64,000 nt of DNA from a virus, in the UHGV virus genome UHGV-1378817; one strand, given 5' to 3'. Below are positions 2,518 to 58,766 of the stretch, piece after piece (the stretch's first letter is position 1; each line of letters opens with the position of its first letter). The notes under the pieces were generated by a model. It saw nothing but the letters and a program-made list of their open reading frames with translations, was not told where the DNA came from and ran no database searches. The position numbers and the translations under genes are program-made.

Positions 2518-2594
2518 TGGTCTCCACGGAGTGATTCGAACACTCGACCTCCTGATCCCAAATCAGGCGCTCTACCAAGCTGAGCTACGCGGAG
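2518..2594 (-). tRNA. tRNA-Pro (anticodon UGG)
   Basis: Minus-strand cloverleaf: 7-bp acceptor stem, anticodon stem CCUGA/UCAGG with loop UUUGGGA, T-loop GTTCGAATC, encoded CCA. Confidence 0.7.
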
Positions 2595-2605
2595 TATTTA
2601 TTATT

Positions 2606-2680
2606 TGGTGGCCCTGGGTGGAATTGAACCACCGTCTGGCGATTATGAGTCGCTTGCTTGAACCTTCCAGCTACAGGGCC
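2606..2680 (-). tRNA. tRNA-Met (anticodon CAU; could be a lysidine-modified Ile tRNA)
   Basis: Acceptor stem GGCCCUG/CAGGGCC, anticodon loop CUCAUAA, T-loop GGTTCAATTCC, encoded CCA. Confidence 0.6.
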
Positions 2681-2681
2681 A

Positions 2682-2757
2682 TGGTGCTGATAGCAGGACT
2701 CGAACCTGCAACCTATTGATTACAAATCAATTGCACTACCAATTGTGCTACATCAGC
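2682..2757 (-). tRNA. tRNA-Thr (anticodon UGU)
   Basis: Acceptor GCUGAUG/CAUCAGC, anticodon stem AUUGA/UCAAU with loop UUUGUAA, T-loop GGTTCGAGTCC, encoded CCA. Confidence 0.65.
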
Positions 2758-2762
2758 AAAAA

Positions 2763-2861
2763 GGTGCTAGGTGATGGAATCGAACCACCTATGTATTCAA
2801 CGACTACCTCGTCTATTTTCAGGATTAAAAATCCTCGCCCTTGCCAAAGGGCTTACCTAGC
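2763..2861 (-). tRNA. type II (long variable arm) tRNA-like gene, anticodon ambiguous
   Basis: Good acceptor stem (GCUAGGU/ACCUAGC), D-arm and T-arm (GGTTCGATTCC) plus a long variable arm, but the anticodon arm only forms a 4-bp stem with loop UUUUUAA; no encoded terminal A. Confidence 0.4.
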
Positions 2862-2959
2862 TCAGTATGTTGACCATGTTGCTAGTCGGCGATGACGACT
2901 GTAACATTTGATAATCCGGTTCTGCTTCCGGCTTTCGCTTAATTACAAGGTCAACAATA

Positions 2960-3049
2960 TGGCTGAGGGTAATGGAATCGAACCATCATCGAGTCATCCT
3001 CAACGGGACGGTTTTCAAGACCGCTTGAGCACCATTGCTCCCTACCCTC
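2960..3049 (-). tRNA. tRNA-Ser (anticodon UGA)
   Basis: Acceptor GAGGGUA/UACCCUC, anticodon loop CUUGAAA, long variable arm, T-loop GGTTCGATTCC, encoded CCA. Confidence 0.6.
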
Positions 3050-3164
3050 ATTTATAAACAATACTGATAATGACACTGATTTTCGAGCAGTTAGTGACTA
3101 GTATAAACGACGATAAATATCAATGCCATTATCTGTATGATTTATGCATTTAAAACTATAAATT

Positions 3165-3251
3165 TGGTGGGGAGTGGTGGAGTCGAACCACCCGAGTCGC
3201 AATGACAATAGATTTACAGTCTACACCGCTACCTCTACGGGATAACTCCCC
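3165..3251 (-). tRNA. tRNA-Tyr (anticodon GUA)
   Basis: Acceptor GGGGAGU/ACUCCCC, anticodon loop CUGUAAA, long variable arm, T-loop GGTTCGACTCC, encoded CCA. Confidence 0.6.
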
Positions 3252-3255
3252 AATT

Positions 3256-3330
3256 TGGCACCCCGTACTGGACTCGAACCAGTGTCAACGGCTTAGAAGG
3301 CCGCTGCTTTATCCACTAAGCTAACAGGGC
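3256..3330 (-). tRNA. tRNA-Arg (anticodon UCU)
   Basis: Acceptor stem with G-U wobbles, anticodon loop CUUCUAA, T-loop GGTTCGAGTCC, encoded CCA. Confidence 0.65.
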
Positions 3331-4642: not shown

Positions 4643-5210
4643 AGTAAATCTTATTTAACATTACCTCATCCTTTGCAGAGAGAATACCGAGATATGCATC
4701 ACCGAACCTACCTGCAACAACCTCTACATGATACATAACTTCGTTAATATCGTCAAGAGTGATAACTGGATGACCGTATCTCTCTGAGTATTGTCTCAGA
4801 GTGCGATGTAGGGAATCATCATCGTAGGCAGACTTTTTAATATCACAAACACGACGAATAGCCTTGATGTCGAAAAACCCTGTGCGATACCAACCAAGAA
4901 AAAGGTTTCGTACAGTGTCAACACCTACATCAACACCGTCAAGAACCTTATCTACAAGATAGCTGTCATCCTTTGGACCTGCTTCCTTAGTTCGAATGTA
5001 GTTGCCATCTTTTCCAGGTGACAGCTCCTTCTCATCACCAACCTGAATGCCATCATTTGGCGGTGTTAACCACTTATCCGGATGCTTACGATCACGAGCG
5101 TTAGAATGATTACGCTGGAAACCTGGCTTCCACTTGAAAGTTTTCTCCATCTGTTCTTCATTCTGATAACGTTTTGCAATCTTTTCACGGTCATCTTTGC
5201 GTGGACTCAT
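4632..5210 (-). CDS. hypothetical protein
   Basis: 192-aa minus-strand ORF; no motif I recognise. Confidence 0.45.
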   Translation of the reverse strand: MSPRKDDREKIAKRYQNEEQMEKTFKWKPGFQRNHSNARDRKHPDKWLTPPNDGIQVGDEKELSPGKDGNYIRTKEAGPKDDSYLVDKVLDGVDVGVDTVRNLFLGWYRTGFFDIKAIRRVCDIKKSAYDDDSLHRTLRQYSERYGHPVITLDDINEVMYHVEVVAGRFGDAYLGILSAKDEVMLNKIYYER

Positions 5211-5713
5211 AACTACCTCCTCTTCAAGTTATAGAAAAACTCACTGTATCGCTTTGTAACGAGCTTTTCTATCAAACTGGTGCGATTGCCTTACCTGGTA
5301 TAGTTTATATAGCTGTGGAGCGATTTAGGTGCCTTCTTGTCCGTTTCCACACATAAACTTCATCCAAGCTCGCGCGGGAGACTCTCAACCGACTCCTTAC
5401 GGCGCTGGCAAGCTTTCGTCGGTGGTCCACATCAGTGCTCGGCCTTTGGCCTGCGCTATCGCTTCGCTCCCACACATGTTAACAGACCTGCATGTATGCA
5501 CTTCTGTTATTGTGTGCACCAGGGAGGCCCGGCATCTCGCCCCTCGTAGGCGAGTGCCAATGAAGGGCCGACACTACCCATAGTAAGTAATAAATTTAAA
5601 ACATGGTACTTAGGATCTAGTATATTCTACATAAGTTAAGTATATGTACTTAGTACCATAAGTACTAGATCTTTTATTTTTTATTATTTAGTTATTTTAG
5701 TTATATTCTTTAT

Positions 5714-5795
5714 GTGTCCGTATCACGGACAGTTAGTGTCCGTATTACGGGCAGATGTGTCCGCGTGACGGACAGTAGTGTCCGTATCACGGACA
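5714..5795. repeat. four tandem copies of a 17-bp palindrome TGTCCGT-N3-ACGGACA (operator- or iteron-like array)
   Basis: Copies at about 5714, 5737, 5758 and 5779; two perfect (TGTCCGTATCACGGACA), two degenerate; spacing 21-23 bp. Confidence 0.6.
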
Positions 5796-5870
5796 GTTAC
5801 TAACCTCTGTTCCATAGCGAACATAAAACATACGAATCCTTATAGTACAGATATTTAAGTTTTTACTGGT

Positions 5871-51430: not shown

Positions 51431-51657
51431 GGTTTTAACTCCTATCTATCCGGTTAATGATTGGGGGCCGCCCCCCTGATGAGTCCTATTATCCATATTG
51501 TAGGGCTTGATGCAAGTACTTATTTAAAAAATTTTTTAAGCGCTCCGTATGCCGTTGTAACGCCAAAATAATAAAGGCCATGCAACCGCATAGCCTTTAT
51601 GTGATTATATCGCTGCAGGCCCTGCCAGGGGCCTTATTTTGCATCATTTTACCGGAA

Positions 51658-51957
51658 CTATACAGAGAAAACATCGTTCACAATAGCGATCACAATGCCG
51701 CCCACCTTGTCACGGTCAACAATGCACAAATCACCATAAATCATGTGGTAGTCTGGATGATCTTTCACGGAATAGTCAATGAGTGTTTTCTTGTCGTCCA
51801 GCTTTGTAACTTCCATTCTCATAACGATATGAGAATCATCAAAGGCATTATTCCGAAAAGTCATAGCCTGACCACCAGGGCACCCAGTGATCTCAACTTC
51901 CACACCGTCTACGATCTGACCATCAAAGAAATAAAGATTATTAGCCGGGATAAACAT
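51658..51957 (-). CDS. hypothetical protein
   Basis: ORF 51658-51966 trimmed to ATG (MFIPANN) with AAGGAG RBS; downstream of palindromic promoter copy 1. Confidence 0.4.
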   Translation of the reverse strand: MFIPANNLYFFDGQIVDGVEVEITGCPGGQAMTFRNNAFDDSHIVMRMEVTKLDDKKTLIDYSVKDHPDYHMIYGDLCIVDRDKVGGIVIAIVNDVFSV

Positions 51958-52001
51958 GTTTATCACTCCTTGTTAACTGCGTGTTATTTTACCACGATTA
52001 A

Positions 52002-52047
52002 AATTTACTTTACCGATGGCCCTGAAGTCAAGGCCATCTAAAAATAA
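52002..52047 (-). promoter_or_regulatory. conserved palindrome-embedded promoter element, copy 1
   Basis: About 46 bp, near-identical to copies at 55714 and 56335; on the minus strand a TTGAC -35 sits inside the inverted repeat GATGGCC...GGCCATC. Confidence 0.55.
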
Positions 52048-52049
52048 AT

Positions 52050-52250
52050 TTACAGGCCTACAATCTCTTTGATTCGTTTTACTGCTGCCTCAGCGCCTTG
52101 GGGGTAGAAATTATGGTAACCGATCACGCGAGTGATACTAATCGCCGTTTGATGATCTTCATAATCGCCCTTGAAGATTTCTTGACCGTCAATCAGCACG
52201 GCAATTTTTTCTTCTTTTTTGAAGTTAATAACGCGGATATTGTTGCTCAT
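52050..52250 (-). CDS. hypothetical protein
   Basis: 66-aa ORF. Confidence 0.4.
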   Translation of the reverse strand: MSNNIRVINFKKEEKIAVLIDGQEIFKGDYEDHQTAISITRVIGYHNFYPQGAEAAVKRIKEIVGL

Positions 52251-52727
52251 TTTGTTTCTCCTTTCTGGTTTTTGTGTTGGTGGGGATTAGCTCCCCGTTG
52301 ATTGTCATTATCCACATTCTGGACCGGATTGCAACACCCCGGAAGAAAAATTTTTTAAAAAGATAGGCCCCATGATCGGGGGCTGTTCTTAGTTACTTAC
52401 TGCGATAAAGTACATCCCTACGCCTAGCAATATTTCAAGGGCGATGATCTCAAGCCATACCATAACCCGGCGCGCCTTATCGGTGCGGGGCTTATCCTTG
52501 GTTGTCATCGTCTCCCCCTTTCCTCCTGGTAGTAGTGACGCGATCTACAATGACCCCCAGGAGTCCTATCACGACACACATCACGAGAAAAATTATCTCC
52601 GCTGTTGTTCGGTCCATTATTATAAAAGTCCTCAAGATCAGGCCTGAAAATAAAGCTTTCGTTATTGAATCCATCACGCCAGGCGGCTGGCTTCAAATCT
52701 TCATTAAAGGGATTAATTAACGTGGTA

Positions 52728-53099
52728 TTATTTAAACGGCTGGCCCACATATTTTCTATTCCTCTCAAATAGGCGATCCGCCTCAGTTAAACATATCTCA
52801 TGGGCTTGATCTCTGGTTTTAGCTTCATCAAAAACCTGTTGCGCCAGGCTGCAACGTAGGGAGACTGGAAGATCACTATAATAGGCGTTGACAAACGTTT
52901 GAGCGTCGTACAGGTCTGAAAATACTTTACCCTTTCTATTATCGCCTTTGTCAACAATTGCAAGGATAACAAGTACAATAGTTGCAACCACCCCCAGGAA
53001 AATAGATATAATAAACCATAAAAAGGCGGATCTACCTATCTTGCCAGCGATCCAGGCGTTGAACAAGGCAACTACTACAGCCAAAATAATAAATTCCAT
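52728..53099 (-). CDS. membrane protein
   Basis: ORF 52728-53132 trimmed to Met MEFIILAVVVALFNAWIAG; two hydrophobic helices; AGAGG RBS. Confidence 0.45.
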   Translation of the reverse strand: MEFIILAVVVALFNAWIAGKIGRSAFLWFIISIFLGVVATIVLVILAIVDKGDNRKGKVFSDLYDAQTFVNAYYSDLPVSLRCSLAQQVFDEAKTRDQAHEICLTEADRLFERNRKYVGQPFK

Positions 53100-53163
53100 T
53101 CTATGTACCTCTTTTGTAGTTCTGTTTAACAATAAGGCGGCAAATATGCCGCCTGTTACCTGA

Positions 53164-53544
53164 TTAAAAATTATCGCCGTAAATCTTTCCGCTTTCTACC
53201 CATACCACCACGCGAGGCATACTATCCCACACGTCTTGTTTTAGATTGAGCGCGTGCAATTCTTCGGTGGTGCTCATACCGGGCACGGGCTGATTGTATA
53301 CTGCAAAACGACCGCCTGCATAATCATAGGCCAGGGTTAAATCACACTGGATCATCTTTTTGATCATGGCATTAAGCATGGCGTTAGCCGCATATTGATC
53401 ACGTTTTAAAGGCAACTCTTTGATTAGTTTGCGATAGTTTTCGATATGGTCGCACACTGTTTCACGAGGAAGATCTTTCATATCTTCACGGAATGTAACC
53501 AGGTTAAACATAACGGTGTCAATAGCCTTGGTAGTGTTTTTCAT
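53164..53544 (-). CDS. hypothetical protein
   Basis: 126-aa ORF. Confidence 0.4.
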   Translation of the reverse strand: MKNTTKAIDTVMFNLVTFREDMKDLPRETVCDHIENYRKLIKELPLKRDQYAANAMLNAMIKKMIQCDLTLAYDYAGGRFAVYNQPVPGMSTTEELHALNLKQDVWDSMPRVVVWVESGKIYGDNF

Positions 53545-53634
53545 GATGTTATCCTCTTTGTTTTGTGTTGGGGCAAACGTCTTGCCCCCTTGAGTTTTAA
53601 TATAGCAGGTTTTTAGGTTATTGCAACACTTTAT

Positions 53635-54258
53635 TTATGAAAAAGTCATCTCACCATATTCATCGACATCAAACCGCCAATCATTGGCCTCGATAAGGCC
53701 GATCAGGTTTTCTGCGGTGAACTGTTCTAGATAGGCCTCCTTCAGGTCTACGTAAACCTTGCGGGATAGCTCCCGTACCGTCTCGGTGATCAGTTCTTCC
53801 AGGTCTTCCACTTTGTTTTCTTGTTTGGCGGTCAGATCTAGCCAAGTGGTATCAATGTACCCGCTTACAGTGTTTTCATGGCTGTAATGGCTGTACTTGT
53901 CGCGTTCAACACTGGCTGATAACTCGCCATCGTGCATTGTGCCGAACAAGTGACGAATTGATCGGAACTTGGTCAGGGCCTTTACTTTACGCAAAAATTT
54001 TTCTAAATCCACGTTTTCAGCACTGATTGACGCGCCGTCACCCTGGCACCAAAAGCCGGACCAATGTACTTCGGTATCTTCAAGGCCGTACTCTGGAAAG
54101 ATATATTCTTTGTAGTGTTCAATTACACTTTCTGCAAAAAAGTTATCCCCGCTGTGTTCTTCTCTTTCGCGGACCATTTCAATAGCTTTTTCTTTTTGTT
54201 CGTCGGTCAGCACGTCGAAAGATAAATTGTAACCTGTGGTAATGTTAACGGTGGTCAT
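53635..54258 (-). CDS. hypothetical protein
   Basis: 207-aa ORF; contains FWCQGDGASIS; no family assignable by eye. Confidence 0.45.
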   Translation of the reverse strand: MTTVNITTGYNLSFDVLTDEQKEKAIEMVREREEHSGDNFFAESVIEHYKEYIFPEYGLEDTEVHWSGFWCQGDGASISAENVDLEKFLRKVKALTKFRSIRHLFGTMHDGELSASVERDKYSHYSHENTVSGYIDTTWLDLTAKQENKVEDLEELITETVRELSRKVYVDLKEAYLEQFTAENLIGLIEANDWRFDVDEYGEMTFS

Positions 54259-54332
54259 GATATTTTCTCCTATTTTCTTTGTTAGTGGCGGGAAAACTTC
54301 CCGCCTGTGTGCTTAAGTATACTTATTGAGAT

Positions 54333-54593
54333 TTACTTGTCAACACTATTTTTTAAATTATTGTGGCGTAAAATATTCAAGATCTCTTCAACGTCATCAA
54401 CACGGCGGCAATTTTTAAACGCTACCAATTGCCCCAGGATTTTAATCACTGGACGGCCTTGCCAGTGCCCTTGGAGAAAGCGCGCTTTAACTTTATCGGT
54501 GGAACTATCACGCCACCAAATAGCCTTGTTGTTGCAGTAGTAAAAATTATTCAGGATAACATCAACTTTATCAAAATTTTTTAATTTACGCAT
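54333..54593 (-). CDS. hypothetical protein
   Basis: 86-aa ORF preceded by a minus-strand TTGACA-16-TATACT promoter. Confidence 0.4.
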   Translation of the reverse strand: MRKLKNFDKVDVILNNFYYCNNKAIWWRDSSTDKVKARFLQGHWQGRPVIKILGQLVAFKNCRRVDDVEEILNILRHNNLKNSVDK

Positions 54594-54997
54594 GGCGTTT
54601 ACTCCTTTCTCTCTTTGATGTGGTTAGTATAGCTAACCTGTTGACGATGTCAATGATATTTTTAACGCCATGAAACGGCCCTGGGCGATGTTTTCAGGTT
54701 AAAGGGGGCGATTGCATAGGTGGGGCCTTTTTGGCGCTTACAGGGCCAACCAGGGGCGCTATTCGTAGGATAGAAATAAAAAGCCCCGCACAATGGCGGG
54801 GCGTTGGTTGTTATTTGCCTTTGTGGCGGTATCGTTCCGCCTGTCGTTCACGTTCCAAAAGCAGGCCCGGTAATTTGCGATCATAATGATTCCGCCAGAT
54901 CTTCCCAAATCTTTTTGGCTTATTCAGTTTATTGTTGCGCTGGCGGCGTTCCGGCAGCTCTTCGGAAGCATGAGATCGCTTTACAATCTTCTCAAAA

Positions 54998-55351
54998 TTA
55001 ATCTTCATATATTCCCCCCTTGCTAACTTCAATATTGGCCTGAATAGCCCGGATACGGCGCTTTATAACTTCCTGATCTGTGTGATCGTATCCCCAAAAG
55101 TCTACGATTTTTGCGCCTCCAGCCTTTAGGCGGTATAGTGTTTCTTGCATCTTGTAAGCCGGGATCGGTCGCGGTGTTACCTGGTCGCCCTTCTCATTCT
55201 TGTACTTGATAATGTAGTCTTCATTGTCGTTGAATACCCAAAATGGGTATTCTGTGAGCGCGTTGCTCTCTTTTTCGTTTTTAGATTGGATCTTGTTTAC
55301 AATTAAAGCCGTAGCAATAGCGCCAATAATAAAACTTGCCCCGCTGATCAT
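54998..55351 (-). CDS. membrane-anchored protein
   Basis: ORF 54998-55414 trimmed to Met MISGASFIIGAIATALIV; AAGGAG RBS. Confidence 0.4.
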   Translation of the reverse strand: MISGASFIIGAIATALIVNKIQSKNEKESNALTEYPFWVFNDNEDYIIKYKNEKGDQVTPRPIPAYKMQETLYRLKAGGAKIVDFWGYDHTDQEVIKRRIRAIQANIEVSKGGIYED

Positions 55352-55426
55352 GTACTTTCTCCTTTCATTGTGTTGATAAACTGTCTTTATAGATGGCCCT
55401 GCTACCAGGACCACCGAAAAAACAGC

Positions 55427-55672
55427 TTATTTGACGATACCGACAAAACAGATCCCGCCTTCCCCTATATAGGCAATATCGGTAATTTTATAATTTGTCA
55501 AGATCCGCGTGTTCAGATCATTAATAAAATCGGTCATCGCGTTGGTGTAGTTGTCTTCCGTGTCTAAGGCATAATCCCAGGTGTAAACCTTTTTACGTCC
55601 GAAGCCTTTTACCATGATACGGGCGCTTTTGGTGTTGGTAGGGGCATAATATTTAGTGATTAGTGCTGCCAT
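55427..55672 (-). CDS. hypothetical protein
   Basis: 81-aa ORF with AGGAG RBS; downstream of palindromic promoter copy 2. Confidence 0.45.
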   Translation of the reverse strand: MAALITKYYAPTNTKSARIMVKGFGRKKVYTWDYALDTEDNYTNAMTDFINDLNTRILTNYKITDIAYIGEGGICFVGIVK

Positions 55673-55713
55673 GGTTTTAACTCCTATGCATTAGTTCAGT
55701 GTTAACAGTATAA

Positions 55714-55759
55714 AGTTTACTTTATTGATGGCCCTAAAGTCAAGGCCATCTAAAAATAA
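55714..55759 (-). promoter_or_regulatory. conserved palindrome-embedded promoter element, copy 2
   Basis: AGTTTACTTTATTGATGGCCCTAAAGTCAAGGCCATCTAAAAATAA on the plus strand; same element as copies 1 and 3. Confidence 0.55.
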
Positions 55760-55761
55760 TC

Positions 55762-56103
55762 TTACTCGTTTTCTTCCAGCTCCGCAAGCTCTTCTTTTGC
55801 TTCTTCCAACCCTGTCTGTAATTCCTGGTATTCTTCATCGTCCTCAATATCCAGGCTGTCGATGTAGTCGCTAAATCCGCAGCGGTAAGCGATAGGATCT
55901 AGCTCCTTGAGGATACGCGACGGAAGAAAAGAAATGTTTCCGATCATAATTTCGCCGTAGATCTCGTCTAACCATTCATCATAGTTTTCGTCGTACTTGT
56001 CCTCGTCGATTTCAAAGTTATCGATCTTATTCTCAAGGTCTGCGATCTGTTTTTTCAGCGCGGCGATCTGCATAGCTTTTTCTGCGGCGGTCATAGTAGT
56101 CAT
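55762..56103 (-). CDS. hypothetical acidic coiled-coil protein
   Basis: 113-aa ORF, highly acidic C-terminus. Confidence 0.4.
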   Translation of the reverse strand: MTTMTAAEKAMQIAALKKQIADLENKIDNFEIDEDKYDENYDEWLDEIYGEIMIGNISFLPSRILKELDPIAYRCGFSDYIDSLDIEDDEEYQELQTGLEEAKEELAELEENE

Positions 56104-56179
56104 GGTGTTTTTCTCCTTTTGTGTGTTCTGGGAAGTTTTCCCGTTTATGTGCTTATTATATCGATTTAAGTTAGCTTGT

Positions 56180-56302
56180 CAATTAAAAGTTTAAGAAAAA
56201 TTTTGCGACACCGTTGGCGCTACCCATCAACATTTGCGCCAGGATGTACCCAATGATGCAAACGATGATGGTTACCTTTGTGTGCTGGCGTGTAGTACTC
56301 AT
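56180..56302 (-). CDS. small hydrophobic membrane peptide (~40 aa)
   Basis: Manual translation MSTTRQHTKVTIIVCIIGYILAQMLMGSANGVAKFFLNF; G-rich RBS; downstream of palindromic promoter copy 3; below the ORF-track cutoff. Confidence 0.35.
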
Positions 56303-56334
56303 CTTTAAGCCCCCTTTTCCGCTCAACTGTGGTT

Positions 56335-56380
56335 AGTTTACTTTATTGATGGCCCTGGTGTCAAGGCCATCTAAAAATAA
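56335..56380 (-). promoter_or_regulatory. conserved palindrome-embedded promoter element, copy 3
   Basis: AGTTTACTTTATTGATGGCCCTGGTGTCAAGGCCATCTAAAAATAA; differs from the other copies mainly in the 3-nt palindrome centre. Confidence 0.55.
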
Positions 56381-56382
56381 GC

Positions 56383-56787
56383 TTAATAAGTTTTCAGTAC
56401 TTTCCCGTCCAATCTGTCAAGCTGGATCTCGATAGCTGCAGAAAACCTATTGTAAACCACATCACCCATAGAATCCAACCAGTCTATGACATTATACACT
56501 TGCTCTTTGTTCTTGCAGGTCCGGATCCGTTTCATGATGTAAGCCGGATCAATATTGGTACTCTCGTTGGTGTTCCCCTGTACCTTGTTTGCCGTATTAG
56601 TTACATCTTTAATGGCCTTTACCACCACCTGGAATGGCTTTAAGGTGCCTTTTGCGTTCATCTCACGCGCTTTTGCGGCGCGGTTGTTATATGTTACACA
56701 ACGGCGGCAAATGTTGATCAAATGCATGTCAATAATTTTTTCATCGTTTGCCAACTCGTTCATGATGCGGCGTACGTTCTTATTCAT
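56383..56787 (-). CDS. hypothetical protein
   Basis: 134-aa ORF; minus-strand TTGACA promoter, GC hairpin and RBS upstream. Confidence 0.45.
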   Translation of the reverse strand: MNKNVRRIMNELANDEKIIDMHLINICRRCVTYNNRAAKAREMNAKGTLKPFQVVVKAIKDVTNTANKVQGNTNESTNIDPAYIMKRIRTCKNKEQVYNVIDWLDSMGDVVYNRFSAAIEIQLDRLDGKVLKTY

Positions 56788-57752: not shown

Positions 57753-58766
57753 TTTTGTACCTCCTCTTCAATTGTTTTCCCTACAGCATGGGCCTACCAG
57801 GTTTGCAAGATTTCACCCTCTCCCACCTGGTCAGTTAGGTCCTGCCAGGCTGGCCCCGCCAGGTTGCAACGGTTAGCGCATCAGGTTAGAAAAATTTTTT
57901 GAAAAGGTGTTGACAGCGGCCCCGCCAGGTGGCACAATATACCTATCGAAAGGACGGCAGGCACCGGTGACGGGGGAGACAACCACCGGGGATGGGCGCT
58001 GCATAAAATGAGAACGGTTATCATTATCATTTAAAAATTTATGCAAAAAATCCTTGCCTTCTTTGTCCTGTGTGATACTATAATAACAAGCCGGGGCAAC
58101 AGGGGCCGGGAGACAATCACCGGGCCTGCCCGTTATTCTGCAAACGAGAATGATTATCATTCAAAATTCTAAATGAGAACTCCTCGCATTTAATAAATTT
58201 AATTAGCACGCTAATTACCCTCCGTAACAATTTCCTATAAAATAGTATCCACTAAAATATTCCCATATAGAAATTTTAAAAATCCATTTCTGAAAACGAA
58301 AAATCGATTTCGTCCCCAAAAATTTCAGGTCGAGAGCTGGAACGATTTCCAGAAAATCCGATTCAGAAAACGAAAAACAGATCGAGTACTGAGAAATTTA
58401 TCGAGAAAAATTTTCAGAAAATTCAATCTTTGAAACGAAAAACAGATCGAGTACTTGGAAAGCTGTACCGCAACTTCAAGATAGTGGCTGGATTATTGCC
58501 ATAAAAGGCCAAGGGCGAGTGGGAAAGTTCTGGTAGAAGGGTGTGAGCATACGCGGAAAATCTGGAATGGTAGCCCGGAATATGACGCAAACGATAGGAT
58601 GAGTGGTTCAGCTCATCGTGTCTACCCTGAAAAATCCATTTTAGTTTTCGATCCGTTTTCTGATTTTCTAAGAATTTTAAAATATCTGGCCTGGTGAAAT
58701 ATCAAAAAGGAGGAAATCCATTTTAGAAATCCCCCTTATACTTGATATGCCAGAAATTTTCAAGTA
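57753..58766. repeat. 1-kb ORF-free, repeat-rich intergenic region
   Basis: No credible ORF; GCCCCGCCAGGT(T/G) repeats, two tandem paralogous units, 68-bp-spaced direct repeats, AAATCCATTT motifs; itemised in findings. Confidence 0.55.

Follow-up and report, generated by a model that had tools for sequence, protein, structure and literature searches.

A promoter-like RNA hairpin repeated in the early region of an rV5-like phage resembles promoter-early stem-loops

The locus and the repeated element

The 64,000-nucleotide stretch of UHGV virus genome UHGV-1378817 analysed here (the window) carries four copies of an element of about 59 nt, each of which folds as minus-strand RNA into a two-tier hairpin and three of which also contain a candidate promoter. 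The 5.4 kb around the element are 90-95% identical to 124 GenBank phage records, essentially all of them rV5-like Vequintavirus, and, to judge from this match, the source phage is an rV5-like Escherichia coli myophage of the genus Vequintavirus. All genes between 46 and 64 kb lie on the minus strand, the sense strand for transcripts of the element; they are small ORFans with consensus sigma-70 promoters and classical terminators between them, and this portion is the early, hyperplastic region of the genome, roughly rV5 genes ~170-205.

A reading made from the sequence only had described a 46-bp promoter element at 52002-52047, 55714-55759 and 56335-56380. The three copies do lie there, share the consensus claimed for them and differ chiefly in a 2-3-nt centre, and a TTGAC -35 box sits in the inverted repeat as described, forming the last three bases of the stem and the first two of the loop. 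The spacing given for the arms had to be amended: GATGGCC-N9-GGCCATC has 0 matches, whereas a spacing of N10 gives three exact matches and one with 2 mismatches. The 46-bp repeat is real, yet the conserved unit extends to about 59 nt, because the flanking T-tract pairs with the A-rich -10 region. The genome search for further copies proposed at that time yields a fourth, diverged copy at 55374-55432 and otherwise none in the window or in the rest of rV5. The small minus-strand gene said to follow each of the three copies is present in every case (51658-51957, 55427-55672 and 56183-56302), the 56180 given as a bound of the last being off by 3 nt. In order of transcription, the copies and their parts are as follows.

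56330-56388, minus strand: copy 3, whole 59-nt unit (covariance model 80 bits, E 8e-16; fold -20.7 kcal/mol, z -5.2)
56338-56380, minus strand: two-tier hairpin of copy 3, with upper stem and loop at 56348-56371, GAUGGCCUUG-ACAC-CAGGGCCAUC
56359-56364, minus strand: candidate -35 of copy 3, TTGACA (3 nt at the end of the 5' arm, the first 2 nt of the loop and 1 further nt)
56335-56340, minus strand: candidate -10 of copy 3, TAAACT, which forms the lower stem's 3' strand (10/12 in the promoter scan, with a spacer of 18)
55709-55767, minus strand: copy 2, hairpin 55717-55759, upper stem and loop 55727-55750 (covariance model 76.6 bits; fold -19.4 kcal/mol)
55738-55743 and 55714-55719, minus strand: candidate -35 (TTGACT) and -10 (TAAACT) of copy 2 (promoter scan 9/12)
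55374-55432, minus strand: copy 4, diverged (covariance model 70.2 bits; the most stable fold, -30.1 kcal/mol, z -9)
55392-55415, minus strand: upper stem of copy 4, GGUGGUCCUG-GUAG-CAGGGCCAUC, above an internal loop UC/UAU and a 13-bp lower stem
51997-52055, minus strand: copy 1, hairpin 52001-52051, upper stem and loop 52015-52038 (covariance model 74.2 bits; fold -24.2 kcal/mol, z -6.1)
52026-52031 and 52002-52007, minus strand: candidate -35 (TTGACT) and -10 (TAAATT) of copy 1 (promoter scan 9/12)

Each copy is located between two consecutive minus-strand genes, after the stop codon of the first and before the start of the second. The copies begin 2-4 nt past the upstream stop codon, with a TAA 2-4 nt ahead of TTATTTTTA, and the next ATG, preceded by an AGGAG- or GGGGG-type ribosome binding site, follows 41-58 nt after the hairpin.

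Copy number and distribution

Sixteen GenBank Vequintavirus records, two IMG/VR contigs and a locus of phage KKE7M supplied 68 elements, which reduce to 47 distinct gap-free sequences, and it is on these 47 that the covariance model was built. The model recovers the four copies at 70-80 bits (E 1e-13 to 1e-16) and has no further match, either in the window or across the other ~78 kb of rV5. A scan of the 64-kb window for the architecture gives exactly four two-tier sites, all on the minus strand, with 0 in 10 shuffles; the four-copy pattern is not due to chance.

Among database records, 121 have the element at 3 places in the genome and 118 have copy 4. Apart from KKE7M, the family is restricted to Vequintavirus. 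It is absent from 5,426 E. coli genomes and is therefore neither a host repeat of the repetitive extragenic palindromic (REP) kind nor a prophage element. An Rfam search gives no match at the elements, even at E up to 5; the element is not annotated in rV5 or EdH4 and appears neither as promoter nor as terminator in Table S4 of the rV5 paper. A scan of IMG/VR with the flank pattern TTATTTTTA-N26-TAAAGTAAA returns 103 loci, of which two (Vequintavirus contigs) are real and the others AT-rich chance matches; among the matches listed by metagenome and IMG/VR scans with AGGGCCATCNNTAAAG there are chance matches only and no hairpin-bearing locus. Separately, 17 GenBank records of the MG0656xx series ("Campylobacter phage" A142, C12, C15 and others) are ~94% identical to this E. 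coli Vequintavirus throughout the region; their host label, Campylobacter jejuni, is probably wrong, or the sequences are contaminants.

Structure and selection of the RNA hairpin

On the sense strand, all four copies adopt the same two-tier fold with a tetraloop. The upper tier is a 10-bp stem with a 4-nt loop, G·U pairs allowed, that reads GAUGGCCUUG-ACNN-YAGGGCCAUC on the minus strand, and the lower tier is a mostly A/U stem of 7-13 bp in which the T-tract, UUAUUUU, is paired with AAAGUAA. Between the two lies an internal loop with 2 nt on its 5' side (UA or UC) and 3 nt on its 3' side (AAU, GAU, GGU or UAU), the third of which is U in 47/47 sequences. Sense folds range from -19.4 to -30.1 kcal/mol (z -4.5 to -9) and antisense folds from -13.1 to -17.2, and RNAalifold, run on the 47 distinct sequences, independently gives the two-tier hairpin.

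The alignment carries a signature of maintained pairing. In a 23-pair structure 92% of cells pair, as opposed to 35-56% when the partners are slid by 1-3 columns, and both the covariation score and the count of double-changed cells lie above those of all 500 shuffles. Compensatory changes are found in the lower stem, where columns 11-49 are A-U in copies 1-3 and U-A in copy 4, columns 10-50 are U-A or, among alleles of copy 4, G-C, G·U or A-U, and columns 8-52 are U-A or C-G; columns 7-53 are G-C in copies 2 and 3 and A-U in copy 1, column 53 being the "Y" of TAAAYT. In the upper stem, all changes but one stay paired on the sense strand by way of wobble, and the three 5'-arm changes that separate copy 4 from copies 1-3 (A to G, C to U and U to C) keep the pairing.

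This pairing belongs to one strand. Scored against a 20-pair consensus structure, the sense strand has 98.3% of its cells paired and the antisense strand 87.1%, a gap that arises because sense G·U pairs become A·C mismatches on the other strand; the mean minimum free energy is -24.0 kcal/mol (sense) versus -15.4 kcal/mol (antisense), with the sense fold the more stable in 46/47 sequences. Between genomes, the paired columns of copies 1-3 vary at 9/120, compared with 166/795 for the mostly coding flanks (p = 3e-4), and the loop columns are more variable, at 11/27. The hairpin is under selection on the sense strand.

These observations bear directly on the explanation first offered for the repeat, that a single repressor or activator of phage or host origin binds the palindrome over the -35 box as a DNA operator and so controls a regulon of three genes. 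A 24-bp inverted repeat that overlaps the -35 box in three near-identical copies, with stems more conserved than flanks, does speak for an operator, and an inverted repeat over the -35 box of several promoters is what the element has in common with classical operator palindromes. The element differs from them, however, in that its asymmetries are strand-specific and of the G·U type: as DNA its half-sites are unequal (GATGGCCTTG versus GATGGCCCTG), and each departure is a sense-strand G·U. In the flanking lower stem the bases change and pairing is kept, a pattern that fits RNA rather than read-out by a protein; the centre of the dyad is hypervariable in sequence; and copy 4 is conserved and keeps the hairpin with no promoter to regulate. 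There are, moreover, four sites only, with none elsewhere in the genome, and no candidate regulator was identified. An operator should have symmetric, strand-independent half-sites with conserved bases, and the element does not. A shared regulator and small regulon thus find no support in a palindrome that behaves as a sense-strand RNA hairpin and persists in a promoter-less copy, and we regard an operator as improbable.

Two other repeats in the window are recorded here. At 5714-5799, in an intergenic gap between minus-strand open reading frames and after an AT-rich stretch, lie four head-to-tail units of 21-22 bp, each a near-perfect palindrome (GTGTCCGTATCACGGACAGTTA; TGTCCGT-atc-ACGGACA), an array that looks far more like protein-binding sites (operators or iterons) than the 59-nt element does. 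At 58266-58461, three direct repeats of ~57 nt (…GAAAATCC.ATTC.GAAAACGAAAAACAGATCGAGTAC…) spaced 65-74 nt apart lie in a stretch that has no convincing open reading frame; they may match the "non-coding" box on the map of the rV5 genome, and an origin or an array with a regulatory role is a possibility.

A candidate promoter within the hairpin

In the promoter scan, copies 1-3 read TTGAC[A/T]-18 nt-TAAAYT and score 9-10/12. Their TTGAC is invariant across 19 Vequintavirus sources and the one KKE7M copy. Loop positions 3-4, directly next to it, take six states (AC, TT, TC, CC, AT and GC), the closing base is C or T, and in the loop of copy 4 3/4 positions vary. In genomes with 94-98% identity elsewhere, these loop positions and the closing base (for example 52025-52027, 55737-55739 and 56358-56360) have at least six states, a hypervariability that could reflect a mutational hot spot in the hairpin loop, gene conversion, or both. 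The only U·G pair in the upper stem of copies 1-3, at stem position 8, involves the first T of TTGAC and is C-G in copy 4; the wobble pair thus coincides with the need of a promoter for T at that place.

The -10 side has counterparts in other predicted promoters. The -10 region AATAAAGTAAAYT of copies 1-3 is also seen in a related phage: its context AATAAAGTAAACT belongs as well to a TTGCAA-16-TAAACT promoter predicted in PATM, a phi92-like phage, and that promoter lies at an equal distance to the same hairpin in the 5' untranslated region (UTR). A related string, AAGTAAACT, is the -10 region of P194, a promoter predicted by the rV5 authors; copy 3 has it in common with P194 and with the PATM promoter. 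Taken together, the hexamers, the invariant TTGAC and the shared -10 context make the promoter reading reasonable for copies 1-3, which, on their sequence, are plausibly weak or modest sigma-70 early promoters. The claim that the repeat is a promoter element stops short of copy 4, a copy with 64% identity to the others over 55 nt that sits between genes for 81 and 117 amino acids and has CTGGTA in place of TTGAC and ACAGTT in place of TAAAYT. With both hexamers missing from this copy, what all four copies have in common is the RNA fold.

That same copy also bears on the view that the repeats are plain duplicated promoters, alike through recent duplication and gene conversion, in which the hairpin is an accident devoid of RNA function. 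Such a history would explain the promoter-like hexamers, the signs of gene conversion between copies 3 and 2 (described below) and an overall conservation among orthologues similar to that of the flanks. It sits poorly, though, with a copy 4 that has lost the hexamers at 64% identity and yet retains, even extends, the fold through compensatory and wobble changes, with the strand asymmetry of the fold, and with an architecture found four times in the window and 0 times in shuffles; accidental structure is accordingly an account to which we give rather little weight.

Neighbouring genes and exchange of cassettes

The genes and signals that surround the copies are listed in order of transcription.

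56383-56787, minus strand: gene for 134 amino acids (phrog_13245, function unknown), whose stop codon abuts copy 3
56183-56302, minus strand: gene for a 39-amino-acid hydrophobic peptide (phrog_16391), downstream of copy 3, in a cassette absent from some relatives
56155-56182, minus strand: consensus promoter (12/12) of the 113-amino-acid gene
56129-56143, minus strand: G/C hairpin in the 5' UTR of the 113-amino-acid gene
55762-56103, minus strand: gene for 113 amino acids, whose stop codon abuts copy 2; transferred to KKE7M with its promoter and copy 2
55427-55672, minus strand: gene for 81 amino acids (phrog_3199), between copies 2 and 4; missing in 241Ecol014PP
54998-55351, minus strand: gene for 117 amino acids (phrog_12734), downstream of copy 4, overlapping the next gene
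54811-55008, minus strand: gene for 65 amino acids, Pfam PF08200 (phage T7 gp1.1 family; 41 bits against a cut-off of 21)
54783-54802: terminator after the 65-amino-acid gene (terminator scan)
52050-52250, minus strand: gene for 66 amino acids (phrog_12347), whose stop codon abuts copy 1
51658-51957, minus strand: gene for 99 amino acids (phrog_7366), downstream of copy 1 and followed by a terminator at 51571-51600

In T7, gene 1.1 directly follows the RNase III site R1.1, and the PF08200 gene here is in the operon downstream of copy 4. A further gene of 351 bp separates the copy 1 gene from its terminator in EdH4 (1736-2086) and several other relatives; the window (~51600-51657) is without it, and that indel is not bounded by the element. 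Elsewhere in the window, a cluster of seven transfer RNA (tRNA) genes (Pro, Met, Thr, Ser, Tyr and Arg) occupies 2518-3330 on the minus strand; one of its calls, 99 nt long (2763-2861), has an unusual anticodon of 4 bases (atcc) and may contain an intron or be a pseudo-tRNA.

Comparison of relatives places several gains and losses of these genes at the element. ECP32, phiWec189 and IMG/VR contig L063 are without the 621-bp cassette between copies 3 and 2, which holds the peptide gene, the consensus promoter and the 113-amino-acid gene; what they have is a single hybrid element with the upstream flank of copy 3 and the downstream flank of copy 2. In 241Ecol014PP, where the 81-amino-acid gene is missing, a hybrid of copies 2 and 4 has its crossover within the element. 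In KKE7M (PQ356295), a Justusliebigvirus and so of a different subfamily, a Vequintavirus cassette at ~5088-5561, made up of the consensus promoter, the 5'-UTR hairpin, the 113-amino-acid gene and element copy 2, replaces a native 72-amino-acid gene as judged against PATM. Its left junction falls in a shared TTGACA promoter and its right junction in the shared -10 region AATAAAGTAAA, so that both are inside promoter sequences common to the two phage groups. The hybrids and junctions show, by comparison of genomes, that the copies recombine and that this deletes or swaps the cassettes lying between them. An apparent cassette swap downstream of copy 2 in IMG/VR contig L064 was rejected, as the gene there is a diverged orthologue with 85.7% identity.

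Copies 3 and 2 of one genome have the same variable centre in 8/13 cases, where 3.7 are expected (p = 0.009), which suggests that gene conversion acts on these two; the distant copy 1 does not show the effect. Recombination or gene conversion accounts, at least in part, for the copies being so nearly identical, and a shared binding protein is not needed to explain it.

Resemblance to promoter-early stem-loops

Promoter-early stem-loops (PeSLs) are known from the T4-like phages RB49/phi1, PST/T4 and nt-1/KVP40 and their definition comprises a stop codon lying upstream in AT-rich DNA, boxes of the sigma-70 type, a stem-loop, and then a Shine-Dalgarno sequence with ATG (PMC2839356, PMC4122927). 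Their stem-loops fall into five positional subclasses, which include those between the boxes or overlapping either of them, and may contain G-T pairs (PMC2839356). They cluster in hyperplastic regions, where recombination between PeSLs deletes or inserts ORFans (PMC2839356, PMC4122927).

The Vequintavirus element resembles PeSLs in the order of its parts, from a stop codon in AT-rich DNA through -35 and -10 boxes and a G-T-containing stem-loop to a Shine-Dalgarno sequence and start codon; in a stem that contains the -35 box, as in the subclass that overlaps -35; in its clustering among small ORFans of a hyperplastic early region; and in deletions and replacements between close relatives that break within the motif. 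Sigma-70-like boxes (in copies 1-3 only), the stem-loop, the context of stop codon and Shine-Dalgarno sequence, and breakpoints in the motif are thus all found here. There are also differences. The phage is a Vequintavirus and not T4-like, with 4 copies per genome compared with about 70; its promoter is weaker (9-10/12 with an 18-nt spacer) than the near-consensus promoters of RB49 PeSLs; its stem is GAUGGCC/GGCCAUC rather than polyG/polyC; and one copy has no promoter. The fold here is backed by covariation, and the whole promoter, T-tract and -10 included, is taken up into an additional lower stem whose 2/3 internal loop is fixed. The element is best accounted for as a PeSL-type cassette, a known kind not previously described in rV5-like phages; what is distinctive is that the entire promoter is folded into a two-tier hairpin.

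The same phage has a second set of promoters, ordinary early ones (TTGACA-16/17-TATAAT-like, up to 12/12), in which a Gn-loop-Cn hairpin (for example GGCGGGAAAACTTCCCGCC) follows a few bases after the -10 box and is itself followed by a ribosome binding site; promoter and hairpin are paired at 56155-56182/56129-56143, 54316-54343/~54287-54305, 53599-53626/53570-53588 and 56836-56863/56807-56825. This is the layout of RB49-type PeSLs, and the phage therefore has two kinds of promoter/stem-loop cassette.

The authors of the PeSL work speculated that the stem-loops might be targets of recombination proteins. A related view of the present element would have it act at the DNA level, as a cruciform or hairpin for a structure-specific recombinase or nuclease, or for a hairpin-dependent polymerase as at an N4-type promoter or priming site. 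Indel breakpoints do fall within the element, but the junctions, such as that of KKE7M in AATAAAGTAAA, are consistent with ordinary homologous recombination across identities of 13-50 nt, and the strand asymmetry favours the transcribed strand. We judge a DNA-level role very unlikely. Promoters of the N4 virion polymerase have stems of 5-7 bp and loops of 3 nt and need the virion RNA polymerase, an enzyme that rV5-like phages are not known to encode; an N4-type hairpin promoter was rejected as a candidate, the sizes of stem and loop being wrong.

Comparison with terminators and RNase III sites

An intrinsic terminator was likewise rejected. No U-tract follows the stem on either strand (AAUAAAGUAAA stands there on the sense strand and UAAAAAUAA on the antisense), and for this reason the element is no intrinsic terminator; it is also absent from the output of the terminator scan, which does list classical terminators nearby, at 54783-54802, 53135-53154, 52367-52383 and 51571-51600. 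A resemblance to lambda boxB on the plus strand of copy 1 (GCCCTGAAG) was also set aside, as the string is on the strand that is not transcribed and differs from copy to copy.

All five early RNase III sites of T7 (R0.3, R0.5, R1, R1.1 and R1.3), by comparison, fold as two-tier hairpins: above the lower stem and an internal loop of 2-4 nt (5') and 3 nt (3') comes an upper stem of 9-10 bp, G·U pairs included, capped by a small loop. The element has the same architecture in the same kind of place, between cistrons of small genes in sigma-70-transcribed early operons. The internal loop of R1 is exactly UA/AAU, as in copies 1-3, and in T7 as here the 3' loop invariably has U as its third base. The T7 cleavage positions, which we take to be 890, 1468, 3138, 5887 and 6448 (coordinates checked for internal consistency only), fall in 5/5 cases on the third base after the upper stem, always a U. 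The feature tables returned for NC_001604 and V01146 hold no RNase III site features. A site of this type should have its internal loop at the point of cleavage, some 11 or more bp or nt away from the hairpin loop, and so confine cutting to one strand. In the element, the 2/3 loop starts 10 bp below the tetraloop, and in the T7 folds 9-10 bp are followed by NAU; the corresponding cleavage position in the element would be set by this analogy. Promoters also lie beside the T7 sites (E. coli promoter C, phi1.1A/B and phi1.3), whereas in the element the promoter is inside the hairpin. Other differences are that there is no sequence homology, the element's covariance model having no match in T7; that the arms of the upper helix occur in the opposite order relative to the loop; and that the lower stem here is almost pure A/U.

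Substrates of RNase III need about two helical turns of quasi-continuous double-stranded RNA, and internal loops restrict the enzyme to one strand and a single cut that leaves a protective 3' hairpin (PMC1540722). With its 10-bp upper stem and 7-13-bp lower stem stacked across the 2/3 loop, the element offers 17-23 bp, in keeping with the two-turn requirement.

The hairpin might instead be an attenuator or terminator of read-through from the upstream promoter, as claimed for the PeSLs of RB49, and not an RNase III site. The stem-loop of RB49 PeSL211/210 lowered expression of a downstream lacZ about as much as rrnB T1 did (PMC2839356), and a hairpin that directly follows a stop codon and precedes an internal promoter is suitably placed to insulate transcription. 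The element has no 3' U-tract, however, with AAUAAAGUAAA in that position and its U-tract on the 5' side, paired into the lower stem; the terminator scan passes over it while finding its classical neighbours; and the conserved 2/3 internal loop with its invariant U, together with the lower stem, are features of T7 RNase III sites and not of a terminator. An attenuator pure and simple is, on these grounds, unlikely, if a good deal less so than action as a DNA structure.

A proposed composite regulatory cassette

We lean, by somewhat more than an even chance, towards the reading that the four copies are PeSL-type composite regulatory cassettes in an early gene-shuffling region, with roles as promoter, as RNA hairpin and in recombination. 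As DNA, copies 1-3 would serve as sigma-70 early promoters for the downstream small gene, by way of the T-rich tract, the -35, the 18-nt spacer and the -10. As RNA, the element would be carried on read-through transcripts from the promoter of the upstream gene and fold into the two-tier hairpin, which would most likely be an RNase III-type processing and 3'-end-stabilising signal, or else an attenuator, and would uncouple the upstream from the downstream cistron; by analogy with T7, cleavage would come after the invariant U of the 3' internal loop (NAU|AAAG). As dispersed homologies of ~50 nt, the copies recombine, with deletion or exchange of the cassettes between them, and neighbouring copies appear to be homogenised in this way.

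Several points count against this composite reading. The promoter is mediocre, with an 18-nt spacer and 4/6 at the -10, and the element is not among the 33 promoters predicted by the rV5 authors; a literature search found no transcript mapping for a Vequintavirus. The assignment to RNase III is drawn from architecture, and the stem-loops of RB49 PeSLs were reported as terminators, not RNase III sites (PMC2839356). Independent compensatory events are few, about five (copy 4 versus copies 1-3, two classes of copy 4 alleles, and copy 1 versus copies 2/3), and all are in closely related genomes; the upper stem has one-sided (wobble) changes only; and the 59-nt unit as a whole is no more conserved among orthologues than its flanks.

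A bolder form of the composite reading, which we put forward tentatively and think possible but doubtful, is that the element is a dual-coded 59-nt unit in which every part of the promoter is also a strand of an RNase III processing hairpin, and which is in addition a portable recombination linker. If this were so, one unit would start the downstream gene, cut and stabilise the upstream read-through mRNA, and move ready-to-express cassettes between unrelated subfamilies of phages (Vequintavirinae to Stephanstirmvirinae). PeSL stem-loops in general might then be RNase III sites and not terminators. The match to the T7 sites turns the vague label "stem-loop/terminator" into a precise, cheaply testable hypothesis.

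For PeSLs, the covariation and a promoter-less copy that has the fold provide the first evolutionary support for stem-loops of this type as RNA structures. PeSL-like logic had previously been found only in T4-like phages, and its presence here suggests a general device of large lytic coliphages; part of the evidence is that indels fall at the motif and that a phi92-like phage received a cassette by transfer. For the rV5-like phages themselves, which are used in typing and biocontrol of E. coli O157, the cassettes mark the sites at which accessory early genes are gained and lost.

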